The notes: generated by a model not told the origin, from the sequence alone. 59,600 nucleotides of DNA from an uncultured archaeon (GCA_964388035.1 CAYLZE010000021.1:1-59600), one strand, 5' to 3'; shown: positions 708 through 41,749, counted from the stretch's first letter. Numbers and translations: made by a program.

Positions 708-850
708 CCAATCGCTCCTATTTGAACGTATTTGATAAATTCAAGTTATATTTTGGAATGTCTAGAATTTAAAAAAATAAAATTAATAATCTTAATTAAT
801 TATAATAATTTTAAAACTCAATTGAAAATAACTTTTATCGGTGAAAAACG

Positions 851-1672
851 ATTAGTATCGATTGGCCTAAAATAGAGGAGAAACCTGATTCAAAAATAAA
901 AATTGATGGAACTTTTTTATTGGATCTTCGATCCGAGAAGATAGATTTGGAAAAGAAATTAACGGAAGCAGAAAAAAAAGTTTCTGAATTAGAGAAGAAA
1001 CTCTCTGATAATCAAAAAAATTTGGATCAAGTTATTAAAGAAAAAAAGGATTTAATGAATAATCTTTCAACCTCGGAGGATAAGATAAATAGTTTAGAGG
1101 AAAAATCCAACAATTTAACCAAAGAAATCAATAATTTAAAGTCTGATATAGATGTTAAGGCAAAAGAAATAGAAGGATTAAAAAATAATGTCAATGAAAT
1201 CCAGAAGAAAATATCAGAAAAAGATGTTGAGATTAATACCATTAAAGGGCAATTAGTTGATAAAACTAATGAGATTAACCAAGTAAAGAGTCAAATCTCA
1301 GAGAAAGAGAATGCTGTCAATCATATGAAAAGCCAAGTTTCAGAAAAAGAAAATGAAATCAAGGCAATTAAAGAAGAATATGAAAAAGCCACTGCAGATT
1401 ATAATGGTGAAACAGAAAGGCTTAGAAATTCTCTCGATAAAATAACAAATGAAAAAGATCAAGAGATCGAATCTCTTAAAGAAAAATTGCTTAAAAACGT
1501 GGATGAAATTGAGGAATTAAGAGGGAAAGTTCAAAAGTTGGAAGCCTCTCAAACTGAAGAAAAACCTAGTTTAATGGATGTTATTAATGAAGCTCGCTCT
1601 TTAATGTCTGTAAAAGGATTTTTATCTGATAAAGAATTGGATTCTCTCCTCCAACAAGCGGGATTGGAATAA
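851..1672 (+). CDS. Long coiled-coil protein; start probably ATT at 851 rather than TTG at 920
   Basis: E/K-rich heptad pattern. SD GGTGA (840-844) + 6 nt + ATT opens an in-frame N-terminus (M)SIDWPKIEEKPDSKIKIDGTFLLDLR. Confidence 0.75.
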   Translation: MSIDWPKIEEKPDSKIKIDGTFLLDLRSEKIDLEKKLTEAEKKVSELEKKLSDNQKNLDQVIKEKKDLMNNLSTSEDKINSLEEKSNNLTKEINNLKSDIDVKAKEIEGLKNNVNEIQKKISEKDVEINTIKGQLVDKTNEINQVKSQISEKENAVNHMKSQVSEKENEIKAIKEEYEKATADYNGETERLRNSLDKITNEKDQEIESLKEKLLKNVDEIEELRGKVQKLEASQTEEKPSLMDVINEARSLMSVKGFLSDKELDSLLQQAGLE

Positions 1673-1889
1673 TCTTTATTATTTTTTATAAAAAATTTCT
1701 ATCATTTTCTATTTATTTTTACTTTTGAAAATAATACTCTGATTTTTTTTTAATTTAAAGAAAGGAAATTGACTATATTATCGTTTAAAACTATTGAAAA
1801 GTAAAAAATAAAGAATGTCAAGAAACTTATTACCGTATAATTCAATTACAAATAAAGTGAAAAACTAAAATGAATTATCTTCATTTTCT

Positions 1890-2960
1890 TTAGAATTTTC
1901 TGTTTTTTACAAAAGCAAGAAGATCCTTAAAAAATTCTGTTTCTGAACTGTTCATTTCTTTTTCCATCGACTCTAACTCATCTAATGATAGATCATAATA
2001 ATATTGTGCTTTTTCTTGACAAGCATTCACTACATTAGCGTCCTTAAACAATTCCTTAACTTGATTGACATCTTCAATTGAAATTTCTTTTTTCTCGGTT
2101 AATTCCTTTAATAATCTCTTCTTTGATCCCGCTAATCTTTCCCATGCTGAGAGTAATAGGCAGGTTTTTTTACCTTCTCTTATATCTCCATCCGTGGGTT
2201 TTCCTGTGACTTTCTCATCTCCGAAGGTGCCTAAGATATCATCTATAATTTGAAAAATAATACCCAAATTTAATGCAAATTGGGATATTGCCTCTTTTTG
2301 ATGCTTTTCTGCTCTTGCATAGGTCGCTCCTATTAACACGGAATTTTTCAATAAGGCACCAGTTTTTAAGGATATCATGGTGATATAATCATCCATTAAA
2401 GGGAAGTCCTTATTTACCATATCCATTTCAATGAGAACCCCATTACTTACTTCTAAAAATGCATTTTTATAAATTCTTATGGCTTCATTATTAAGAGCTG
2501 GTTCAAAATCATTATTTAGAAAGGCCTCAAGACCTAAAAAAAAAGCAGAATCTCCCCCAATTATCCCAATACAATTACCATAATCGTCTTTTTCCATTTT
2601 TTTTATATTATATTTATCGTGATATATTTTGTATCTATAATGAAAGGAGGGTTCTCCCCTTCTGAAATCGTCCTTATCAATTATATCATCATGAATTAAA
2701 GAAGCATTATGAAGAAATTCTACTCCTATACTTGGAAAAACAATTTTATCTTTTTCTCCATTCTTCAGCAGGGAATTATAAGCTGCAATACAGATAAGAG
2801 GACGAATTCTCTTTCCTCCTGAAAGAAAATAATTTTTTAATTCGAGATAATAACGTTTTAAAAATTCATTTTTTACTTCACTCAATTTATGATCGAAAAT
2901 TGCTCCGATCGCGTTATTGATACCCGGTACATAGGATTGAACATATTTTGCTAATTTCAT
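1890..2960 (-). CDS. trans-polyprenyl diphosphate synthase (IdsA/GGPPS family)
   Basis: GGKRIRP, first Asp-rich motif HDDIIDKDDFRRG, KTG, FQIIDDILG, GKPTDGDIREGKKT. Confidence 0.93.
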   Translation of the reverse strand: MKLAKYVQSYVPGINNAIGAIFDHKLSEVKNEFLKRYYLELKNYFLSGGKRIRPLICIAAYNSLLKNGEKDKIVFPSIGVEFLHNASLIHDDIIDKDDFRRGEPSFHYRYKIYHDKYNIKKMEKDDYGNCIGIIGGDSAFFLGLEAFLNNDFEPALNNEAIRIYKNAFLEVSNGVLIEMDMVNKDFPLMDDYITMISLKTGALLKNSVLIGATYARAEKHQKEAISQFALNLGIIFQIIDDILGTFGDEKVTGKPTDGDIREGKKTCLLLSAWERLAGSKKRLLKELTEKKEISIEDVNQVKELFKDANVVNACQEKAQYYYDLSLDELESMEKEMNSSETEFFKDLLAFVKNRKF

Positions 2961-3285
2961 TTTTCTGGCTAATTTACTCTTACAATAAAATCTTTAAAGA
3001 TATCAAGTTAATTCTCCTTGAATATCAGTATACTGATCGAATTATTAAGTTTGAAAGGGTTTTCAATTTTACTTCCGAAAAGTGATTAAATTATAAAAAG
3101 GTGTTCAAATAATTTATATTCTTAAATGTTACAAATATTAGATATTATTGGAGATAGTATAATTATAATAAAATTAATAAAGAATTCAGAAATTTCCTTC
3201 ACGTATTTTTATAGTAAAAAATTTACTTTCTATTGATGGATCTTAATTAAACCATTAAGCTTGAAAAAAGATTCTTATTAAAATC

Positions 3286-3879
3286 ATGGAAAAAAAAAAG
3301 AAGAAAATTTTATTCATATTTCTTATTTTGGTGGGTCTATTAATTGTTTTTGATGTTACCTTTATTTGGCTTTTTACTTATAAAGTAAATAGTAATGACT
3401 CTACTGAGTTACCCTCATTAAATTCTTCCTATTCTCCGTTAAATATCGGTATGGAATCTTTTTATTTAATTTTAATCAACATAATAATTGTCTTATTCAT
3501 ATCCTTATCAATCTTAAAAATTGTACATCAAGATTATAATTCTTTTCAATCTCGCGAATTTAACTTGAATAACCTTCAAGTTAATATGAAAAAAATTTTA
3601 AACTCTCATGAAATAATTGATGATTTGATTTATACAAGTCAATTAATGAATTCATTAACTGGAGATGCTGCAAAATCAAAATTGAAAAATTTAAATCAAT
3701 TTAAATTAACAATAATATCAAAAGAGTTCATGAGGAGAGCAGACGCTTTAGGGTGGCAAGATAATGAAGAAAAAAAGCTTTTTATAAAAGAAATGGTTGT
3801 TCTCACACCCCAAGAGAGAAACGATTTATTAACGAAAATGGAAATGCAATCCCAGGAAATTAAAAGAGAAAAACCGTAA
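3286..3879 (+). CDS. Hypothetical membrane protein (2 TM + helical C-terminal domain)
   Basis: Two hydrophobic segments; 21 nt upstream of the wHTH gene on the same strand. Confidence 0.7.
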   Translation: MEKKKKKILFIFLILVGLLIVFDVTFIWLFTYKVNSNDSTELPSLNSSYSPLNIGMESFYLILINIIIVLFISLSILKIVHQDYNSFQSREFNLNNLQVNMKKILNSHEIIDDLIYTSQLMNSLTGDAAKSKLKNLNQFKLTIISKEFMRRADALGWQDNEEKKLFIKEMVVLTPQERNDLLTKMEMQSQEIKREKP

Positions 3880-40461: not shown

Positions 40462-40672
40462 CATATTTTAGCTGTTATATGGTTTATTATCCTTTTAGTG
40501 ATTTTTGGAAATTTTTTAAGTTCTAAAAAAAACCTTTTCTTGAGTAAACCCAAATTTCATATTGGTTAAATAAAATGTTAATTAATTCTAATTTAATCGA
40601 TTACTTCTAAAGGGTAAACTATCTTAAGATAAAAAGATTTAAAGAAAAAGATCCAACCAGCACATTTGGTCA

Positions 40673-40716
40673 TTCTTCAAATAAATTTCCTTTAGGCTTT
40701 TTTTATTTGAATCATT
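40673..40716 (-). promoter_or_regulatory. Putative SECIS element (eukaryote/Loki type) in the 3' UTR
   Basis: Minus strand: A-AUGA-UUCAAAUAAA-AAAAGCCUAAAGGAAA-UUUAUUUGAA-GA-A. Perfect 10-bp stem flanked by AUGA/GA, with unpaired As at the start of the loop and a CC/GG mini-stem. Confidence 0.8.
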
Positions 40717-40727
40717 ATTAGGATTTT

Positions 40728-41651
40728 TCACTTGCAATCTTTGGATTCTTTCGTGTTAAATTTAATGAAAGCTATTTCTTGTTCATTTCTTTTACTAGAT
40801 TTGACCGAACGATTGACTTGGCTTAGAAATTTCATTGCATTTTTCTTCCCTTCAATTATATTTTGAATAAGCTCCTCTTTACTAAATCCACCAGAATTGA
40901 CTAAAGCAGTTTGGAAAGATTGATTGGGTTCCAGAGTTTTAAATTCGATTTGTAAAGCCGACAGTAATTCTTCAGGACCCTCTTGGATTTTATTTGATAA
41001 GTGTAATTTATCGGGATTAATATCAAAATCTCTGGTGGGAATTGCTTCATAATGGGTTGGATTTGAAATGGTTGAAAATCCGCCATGTAAGCCCGTAGCA
41101 TCGTATTGATAAATTATATGGTTCTCCTCATCATATCCCGCATAATCGGTATCGAATCCCTCCAAGCCATTTATATCAAAATCAAAGATGAAATACATGG
41201 AAAAGTCTCTTAGATTGTAATCAGAAATATTTTTTAATGTAAAAAAGGTATTCATGTAGGGCACTTTTGGTTTTAAGAAAATATCTATATATAAACGTAT
41301 CGTGGATTGTTTTTTTTTGAATTTCACGGGTTTCAGCTTTCCTTCACGTACTAATTTCTTTAAATACTCTTTAATATCGAAATCGAGCGTGATTCTATCA
41401 ATAGCTAAACCTTTCCGACTATTGACCAATTTATAAATGGGAGTCGGCTCAATGTTTTTAAGGATCACGGGTACATCGCCAACGTCCTTGCCATGCATGA
41501 TAAAGCTGAACCAAGGTCCCGAATGCTCTTGTTCAGCCATGTATAACAAATAACGTTCCTTGTATTTCAGCTCTTTAATTGAAAATCCCATCAAGTATCC
41601 TTGTGTATTTCATAGGGCGAAAATTTCGTTGAAAGCTACTTTTAGAACTAT
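40728..41651 (-). CDS. Candidate selenoprotein (307 aa, Sec at codon 14), beta-rich, possibly a GH15 N-terminal/mutarotase-like supersandwich
   Basis: SD AAGGAGGT 41667-41660, ATA 41651, in-frame TGA 41612-41610, continuous with the 288-aa track ORF, SECIS-like element downstream. The fold call is a by-eye resemblance only. Confidence 0.7.
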
Positions 41652-41749
41652 TTTGGTTTACCTCCTTATATTTTTAAATTAAAATTAAATAGAAAATGTT
41701 CTTCAAGAATGAAAAAATTATCTTATAGAAAAAAGTAATCCTAATAAAA

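Follow-up and report, generated by a model that had tools for sequence, protein, structure and literature searches.

The window analyzed here, a stretch of 59,600 nucleotides from an uncultured archaeon (GCA_964388035.1, CAYLZE010000021.1:1-59600), carries five genes that appear to begin at the non-canonical codons ATT or ATA behind Shine-Dalgarno (SD) motifs (Table 1). It is contig C21 of its own genome, G000, a metagenome-assembled genome (MAG) of 5.47 Mb in 211 contigs with 33% GC and an estimated contamination of 7%. The relatives of the permease encoded by gene 4 all came from Asgard MAGs, labelled Promethearchaeota, Lokiarchaeota, Hod-, Hermod- or Heimdallarchaeota. Below, ATH (AUH in RNA) denotes ATT, ATA or ATC, and ATG, GTG and TTG are called canonical. 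Likely genes of at least 100 codons were called by a codon-usage score, which gave 4229 in G000 and 47 in the window. Among the 2171 open reading frames (ORFs) of at least 300 codons in G000, TAA ends 1435, TGA 486 and TAG 250; since all three stops end long ORFs, genetic code table 11 applies to this genome, and ORF density was normal under it.

Direct reading of the window recovered all five SD motifs and ATT/ATA codons where the original prediction had placed them, with spacers of 6-8 nt, as well as the claimed in-frame stop within three codons upstream of each. This upstream bound is partly automatic, because GGTGA followed by 6 nt places its own TGA in frame (sites 1-3; in gene 1, the bounding stop is the TGA at 842-844 within the SD motif). 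A sixth gene, which had not been listed, encodes an S-adenosylmethionine (SAM) methyltransferase and probably starts at ATT 22057. Its first canonical codon, TTG 22123 (open-frame residue 40), falls inside SAM motif I (DLCCGTG), and its Pfam matches begin upstream of this residue, at open-frame residues 14-37.

Table 1. Coordinates of the start sites and associated features, in the window unless a contig of G000 is named. Pfam matches were obtained by scanning from the ATH codon.
Feature	Position	Strand	Details
SD of gene 1, GGTGA	840..844	+	6-nt spacer to ATT 851
Gene 1, coiled-coil protein, large Asgard paralogue family	851..1672	+	start ATT 851; first canonical TTG 920, 23 codons downstream
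SD of gene 2, GAGGTGA	14650..14656	+	6-nt spacer to ATA 14663
Gene 2, conserved protein without Pfam match	14663..15670	+	start ATA 14663; first canonical TTG 14726, 21 codons downstream
SD of gene 3, GAGGTGA	27199..27205	-	6-nt spacer to ATT 27192
Gene 3, FMN-dependent dehydrogenase	26137..27192	-	start ATT 27192; first canonical TTG 27177, 5 codons downstream
SD of gene 4, AGGTGG	37494..37499	-	7-nt spacer to ATT 37486
Gene 4, CitMHS/ArsB-type permease	36059..37486	-	start ATT 37486; first canonical TTG 37366, 40 codons downstream
SD of gene 5, AAGGAGGT	41660..41667	-	8-nt spacer to ATA 41651; kept in ~20 orthologues
Gene 5, 306-residue selenoprotein candidate	40728..41651	-	start ATA 41651; in-frame TAA three codons upstream
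In-frame TGA of gene 5, probable selenocysteine codon 14	41610..41612	-	between ATA 41651 and TTG 41594
Putative eukaryote-like selenocysteine insertion sequence, 3' untranslated region of gene 5	40650..40725	-	AUGA core, 8-bp helix, A-rich apex, ministem, GA
Gene 6, SAM methyltransferase (probable case)	22057..22620 (ORF 22006-22620)	+	likely ATT 22057 behind weak GTGA
aIF1 (SUI1) gene, L166/L167	G000:C78:3054-3377	+	without canonical start ahead of CPRC zinc knuckle
SelD (selenophosphate synthetase), L160	G000:C47:26194-26994	+	one in-frame TGA, as expected for Lokiarchaeia
PCNA, ATT	C67:5379-6182		PCNA_N residues 3-125 on model 2-124; canonical start 29 codons downstream
uS10, ATA	C68:19531-19836		Ribosomal_S10 residues 5-99 on model 1-98; canonical start 44 codons downstream
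V/A-ATPase subunit D, ATT	C7:70888-71520		ATP-synt_D residues 12-205 on model 1-195; canonical start 62 codons downstream
Two Ras-like small GTPases	C4:83430-84005 and C24:22938-23474		start ATC
Ras match			residues 21-183 on model 1-160; first canonical start 49 codons past ATH
Ras match			residues 10-166 on model 1-159; first canonical start 56 codons past ATH
AFOR_N match			residues 3-202 on model 2-199; first canonical start 75 codons past ATH
Aldo_ket_red match			residues 19-260 on model 1-288; first canonical start 81 codons past ATH

Alignment with orthologues revealed, for all five genes, an interchange of ATG, GTG or TTG with ATT, ATA or ATC in the same column, and the extensions, which had been proposed to be real protein, were conserved in Asgard orthologues, contrary to the refuting outcome named in the original prediction. 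In gene 1, the codon ahead of a conserved SIDW is ATG, GTG, TTG, ATT or ATA, typically behind GGTGA-N6, with ATT or ATA in ~10 paralogues or orthologues. The ISTGSSILNDLNKIFIPCR of gene 2 aligns residue for residue with MPESSxILNDxNKVFIPCR of ATG-bearing orthologues; its ATA occupies the ATG column of the MPESS..ILNDLNKVFIPCR orthologues, and L069 has ATC there. The ATT of gene 3 aligns with the ATG of L053 and L054 (MTKEKLSLEDVR, MSNEKLTLEDVR). For gene 4, the N-terminal helix is kept at 49 Asgard loci, and the codon before (I/L)(I/L)IS.. is ATG, TTG or GTG in many of these and ATT or ATA in L009, L037, L047, L049 and L016, often behind (A)GGTG(A). The expectation that this permease regains its N-terminal helices also held, as the Pfam CitMHS match begins at open-frame residue 18, ahead of the first TTG at residue 42.

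At 33% GC, ATT and ATA occur frequently, and the sites could have been artefacts of chance or selection, with proteins starting at the downstream TTG or ATG codons and the extensions left untranslated. ATT, ATA and ATC together make up ~15% of the extension codons, GGTGA-N6 creates a bounding stop by construction, and the TTG of gene 3 is only five codons away, all of which would suit such an origin. We therefore weighed it against the whole genome. The 3' end of the 16S rRNA reads ..GGATCACCTCCT, from which the SD consensus is GGAGGTGA, and an SD 5-mer lies 4-9 nt before the first canonical start in only ~7-9% of G000 genes. Extension codons are here those that follow the bounding stop and precede the first canonical start by 6 codons or more; an SD 5-mer lay 4-9 nt upstream of 3.0% of the ATT and 2.3% of the ATA codons among them, compared with 0.25-0.7% of AAT, TAT, TTA, TTT and AAA; the AT-rich control codons AAT, TAT, TTA and AAA were thus not enriched. 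Conversely, for SDs whose downstream 20 nt keep a distance of 6 codons or more from the first canonical start, an in-frame ATH followed in 24 of 35 cases (69%) at spacer 6, 13 of 26 (50%) at spacer 7 and 5 of 11 at spacer 5, and in ~10-15% at other spacers, while out-of-frame ATH at the same spacers amounted to 2-7% (1/36 at spacer 6). Within a single register, that in which the TGA of GGTGA is the bounding stop, spacer 6 (24/35) stands out against spacers 0, 3 (5/33) and 9 (2/36), and therefore the signal is not a by-product of the GGTGA stop. Under a second gene filter (ORFs of at least 150 codons), and for SD 5-mers situated far ahead of the first canonical codon, ATH stood 4-8 nt after the SD in frame in 49 of 111 cases versus 12 of 244 out of frame (Fisher p = 2e-18). 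The genome-wide codon tally proposed in the original prediction thus gave an in-frame ATH excess with its peak at spacer 6. Given this specificity for frame and spacer, the conservation of the extensions across Asgard and the Pfam domains and aIF1 zinc knuckle that downstream starts would cut, a chance origin is very improbable.

The same tally allowed the extent of ATH use to be estimated. SD 6-mers at ORF 5' ends were followed in frame by ATG (115), TTG (26), ATT (24), ATA (16), GTG (11), ATC (4), CTG (2) or other codons (30); after correction for chance, ~33 of the 44 ATH cases are real, which corresponds to ~1 in 6 SD-led starts. The ATH share of SD-led starts was ~11%, 18% and 21% for SD runs of 5, 6 and at least 7 nt, respectively, and the in-frame ATH peak at 6-7 nt was tighter than the spacing of ATG starts, which lie 4-9 nt from the aligned SD end. 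Both features fit a dependence on SD anchoring. ACG and CTG also looked enriched in 5' extensions after SD runs of at least 6 (4/193 and 2/118, small numbers, against a background of ~0.35%), which suggests a general near-cognate use rather than one of AUH alone. In total, 57 genes have an ATH codon that lies 5-8 nt behind an SD run of at least 5 and precedes the first canonical codon by 6 codons or more, and the demonstrable genome-wide rate of ATH starts is about 1-2% of genes, or ~13-20% of SD-led starts. The proposed frequency of five in ~45 genes therefore describes the window, with its 47 genes, but does not apply as a genome rate, which is not 11%.

Twenty of the 57 candidates were retrieved and scanned against Pfam. 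In the cases of Table 1, the models begin at position 1-2 shortly after the ATH, and the first canonical start, 29-81 codons further on, falls within the domain. Judged by these domain boundaries, the intact housekeeping genes among them cannot begin at a canonical codon. Additionally, extensions behind an SD plus a near-cognate codon were ~85% coding-like, with stop-free intergenic windows serving as the control.

Errors of sequencing or assembly, or pseudogenization, could also turn ATG into ATT or ATA in a draft MAG, and the fragmentation of G000 into 211 contigs, its 7% estimated contamination and the low read depth of the public runs would leave room for this. However, the same ATH codons recur in independent MAGs (ATT of aIF1 in 9 genomes, ATA of gene 5 in ~17 and ATT/ATA of gene 1 in ~10), and the ORFs are intact and full length. 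Salt-marsh metagenome contigs from two to three other runs (Logan; all DNA, as no RNA run was listed among the holders of the sequence) are identical to the window at 37484-86, 41610-12 and 41649-51, with the reservation that run depth is low and that one run may be the source sample. We regard such errors as exceedingly improbable.

In gene 5, the original prediction missed an in-frame TGA within the extension. This TGA is kept in ~24 orthologues and has conserved peptide with synonymous changes on either side, IVLKVAFNEIFA[TL]-TGA-NTxGYLMGFS. Distant homologues carry Cys in the TGA column (L153-L155, ICVNCKEKGY), and L150 reads C-T-V-TGA. Genome-wide recoding of TGA was considered and rejected, as TGA ends 486 of the 2171 long ORFs. 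The pattern of conservation indicates that this TGA is very probably a selenocysteine (Sec) codon, and for this reason the ATA start and the extension of gene 5 stand. The start codon is ATA in most orthologues (~17), ATG in L127 (same genus) and L140, GTG in L148/149, ATC in L130 and ATT in L139/L144. The predicted N-terminal peptide is IVLKVAFNEIFAL-U-NTQGYLMGFSIK.

Directly after the stop codon, at least 22 orthologues share the consensus ..AAUCC..AAUGA-UUCAAAUAA-AAAAA-(ministem)-UUAUUUGA-UGA..GGAUU of a putative Sec insertion sequence (SECIS), and comparison of the orthologue 3' untranslated regions (3' UTRs) showed compensatory changes in three of the eight helix pairs and in the ministem. 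The element matches the Asgard eSECIS-like type II element (PMC11227280). An Rfam scan of the gene 5 region returned no SECIS family match and chance matches only. As for the Sec machinery, G000 encodes SepSecS (471 bits), a PSTK-like protein (153 bits, below the cut-off) and SelD (Table 1); no RF01852 match for tRNA-Sec was found in G000, whose recovered tRNA set is clearly incomplete.

The prediction that N-termini would be systematically mis-annotated is borne out by this family: all 120 database homologues listed begin at the internal MGFS and are 'hypothetical proteins' of 285-292 residues, hence without Sec. The Sec-bearing tail remained unmodelled because the database homologues lack it. 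The predicted structure (mean pLDDT 72) matches only beta-sandwich N-domains of GH94, GH116 and GH15 (TM 0.35-0.48), and a beta-sandwich like the GH94/GH116 N-domains is the predicted fold. Published Lokiarchaeial selenoproteins with eukaryote-like SECIS elements comprise SelD, FrhA/VhuU, HdrA, FrhD/VhuD and a Prx-like protein (PMC4989117; PMC11227280). Similar to these, gene 5 combines an in-frame UGA and Cys-containing homologues with a 3'-UTR AUGA..GA core, apical adenines and a ministem. In contrast, its family is absent from the 7 Asgard and 11 archaeal selenoprotein families listed (PMC11227280; PMC13188914), and it differs in having its probable Sec at residue 14 behind an AUA start, with annotated versions that begin after the Sec. 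Selenoproteome surveys by homology would overlook any family whose annotated proteins begin downstream of the Sec.

Inspection of aIF1 and the initiator tRNA, which had been proposed as a check on initiation fidelity, gave a clue in aIF1 only. The 5' end of the aIF1 gene reads TAA CGT AAA ATT AAG GAC GAA TTA ATC TGT CCA AGA TGT, with ATT three codons past the stop. Because the CPRC knuckle precedes the first canonical codon, a TTG, the gene needs a non-canonical start, most probably this ATT. All 9 same-family genomes sampled have the ATT; in most other Asgard families the position holds ATG or GTG, and in a few ATA or CTG is a candidate. In Sulfolobus, discrimination against AUU is a property of aIF1 (PMC4705826; PMC6237735). 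By analogy with infC and eIF1, the AUU of aIF1 could form a feedback loop. Initiation fidelity may thus be altered in this lineage, with the aIF1 start as the only factor-level clue.

The one initiator-type tRNA found (C31:36337-36435) contains an intron and has the anticodon CAT, A1:U72 and three G:C anticodon-stem pairs. Only 19-22 tRNA genes were recovered from G000 (ARAGORN, RF00005), most with introns at varied positions, and the absence of a given tRNA is therefore uninformative. ARAGORN additionally predicts a 'tRNA-Pyl(cta)' with an intron at C7:54735-54839.

These data bear on whether AUH is read by a dedicated decoding device rather than through tolerance of a mismatch. Such a device could be a modified initiator C34, an additional tRNA of the initiator type or mRNA editing that creates AUG; C34 modifications include f5C (5-formylcytidine) in mitochondria and agmatidine in archaeal tRNA-Ile2. 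Highly expressed essential genes (uS10, PCNA, AtpD) use ATH, which suggests that these starts need not be very weak, and the lineage-restricted habit and the incomplete tRNA set would leave a place for a device. However, the sole initiator-type tRNA found shows the usual identity elements and an unaltered CAT anticodon, and the apparent enrichment of ACG and CTG behind SDs fits general near-cognate tolerance better than an AUH-reading device. The tight tie to optimal SD spacing also fits the bacterial infC/pcnB/ccpN model (PMC13009471). We consider a dedicated device unlikely.

The taxonomic spread was measured on evenly spaced 400-kb genome samples, and loci fetched by homology were not used because they are biased by choice. 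In G017 (same family, 31% GC), ATH accounted for 10 of 35 SD-led starts (in frame 7/15 versus out of frame 3/38). In the same order, G038 (31% GC) gave 6 of 30 (3/9 versus 2/21) and G032 (31% GC) gave 1 of 23 (0/3 versus 0/7). Two genomes from other families, G075 (41% GC) and G051 (50% GC), gave 1 of 78 (2/12 versus 0/23) and 6 of 93, with 31 'other' codons (2/17 versus 2/43), respectively; the signal is missing from both. G000 and G017 each differ significantly from G075. The ATH habit is concentrated in the family and order of G000 and does not extend to all Asgard archaea. Mutation pressure towards AT may play a part but is not the whole story, because G032, at 31% GC, lacks the signal.

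Overall, we conclude that the five flagged genes, together with at least 1-2% of the genes in this genome, including those for PCNA, uS10 and aIF1, very probably begin at ATT or ATA behind an SD, as the comparative and statistical evidence above indicates. With a probability of roughly 85%, these are real start sites, and a minority of SD-led genes in Lokiarchaeia-type Asgard archaea, at the family and order level, use AUU or AUA and, less often, AUC; occasional ACG or CTG starts are probable as well. In a putative mechanism, the SD (GGAGGUGA-like) would pair with the 3' end of the 16S rRNA and place the codon 6-7 nt downstream in the P site, where the ordinary initiator Met-tRNA (anticodon CAU) would accept a third-position mismatch and Met would be inserted. 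By extension from bacterial work (PMC13009471) and from studies of Sulfolobus aIF1 (PMC4705826), ATH starts would be less efficient than AUG and would respond to the amount of aIF1, which, through its own AUU start, would feed back on them. In gene 5, UGA would additionally be read through as selenocysteine.

Several observations weigh against this interpretation. Translation from the ATH codons is a prediction from sequence, and in gene 3 the TTG, which sits 21 nt from the SD, might act as a second start. The window rate of 5-6 in 47 is well above the demonstrable ~1-2% of genes genome-wide. Another ~120 genes have long, coding-like extensions but no strong SD plus near-cognate signature; by a rough estimate that includes them, the true share of non-canonical starts may reach several per cent. 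The initiator tRNA gene looks ordinary, so that the tolerance is unexplained by a decoding change at the gene level, and the disagreement between the two same-order genomes, G038 and G032, blurs the lineage boundary.

We tentatively suggest a wider reading, to which we give somewhat less than even odds: that start selection is relaxed and SD-guided in this lineage closest to eukaryotes, with AUH and some ACG/CUG as regular starts for ~1-4% of genes, including core genes of replication, the ribosome and the ATPase. It would be tuned by a self-limiting aIF1, in an archaeal equivalent of the infC and eIF1 loops, and would hide protein features from annotation, among them the N-terminal selenocysteine of a selenoprotein family absent from the published lists. 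Gene callers that admit canonical starts alone truncate or mis-start ATH genes in Asgard MAGs. The losses would include the P-loop of Ras-like GTPases, 44 of the 101 uS10 residues, the PCNA N-terminus, two of the membrane helices in the permease and, throughout one protein family, the selenocysteine. Systematic N-terminal errors of this kind matter, as Asgard proteomes underlie inferences on eukaryogenesis. Moreover, archaea and eukaryotes both rely on aIF1/eIF1, aIF1A and aIF2 to select start codons, and an AUH-tolerant lineage with AUU on aIF1 would be a natural system for learning how stringency is set and fed back.

Elsewhere in the window (1-59600), we observed a cluster of the tricarboxylic acid cycle type, comprising two aconitases, a succinate dehydrogenase/fumarate reductase flavoprotein, a 2-oxoacid:acceptor oxidoreductase and a citramalate synthase. 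At 44750-50606 on the minus strand, an SNF2 helicase adjoins a DNA methyltransferase, with defence-system-like matches.

The phenomenon varies a known rarity, SD-led AUU/AUA initiation, at the scale of a lineage. NCBI table 11 and the mitochondrial start sets also formally allow AUU, AUA and AUC. Table 11 treats these codons as rare and exceptional, and prokaryotic gene callers usually consider ATG, GTG and TTG alone; mitochondrial mRNAs are leaderless and the tRNA-Met is modified, whereas the starts described here are SD-led. In the literature searched, we found nothing on AUU/AUA or near-cognate starts in Asgard archaea or Lokiarchaeota.

The closest parallels are bacterial. AUU or AUA starts behind a strong SD occur in infC and pcnB of Escherichia coli and in infC, cvfC1, ccpN and citZ of Staphylococcus aureus (PMC4705826; PMC13009471), and an extended SD directs near-cognate starts in bacteria (PMC13009471). 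Both systems have a near-cognate AUH codon at the optimal distance behind an extended SD, with the codon conserved among relatives, and in both the gene of a fidelity factor itself uses AUH (infC in bacteria, aIF1 here). However, bacteria use such starts in a handful of genes per genome, with IF3 as the checking factor, whereas in G000 they occur in at least ~50 genes (13-20% of SD-led starts), housekeeping genes included, and operate with the eukaryotic-type machinery of aIF1, aIF1A and aIF2. Attenuation and autoregulation have been demonstrated in bacteria, while the archaeal case is read from genomes. A similar logic applies in eukaryotes, where eIF1, the orthologue of aIF1, autoregulates via a poor start context (PMC4705826), so that a weak start would provide the feedback in both. 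The eukaryotic version relies on a poor Kozak context around AUG in a scanned mRNA; that of the Asgard lineage would rely on AUU behind an SD.

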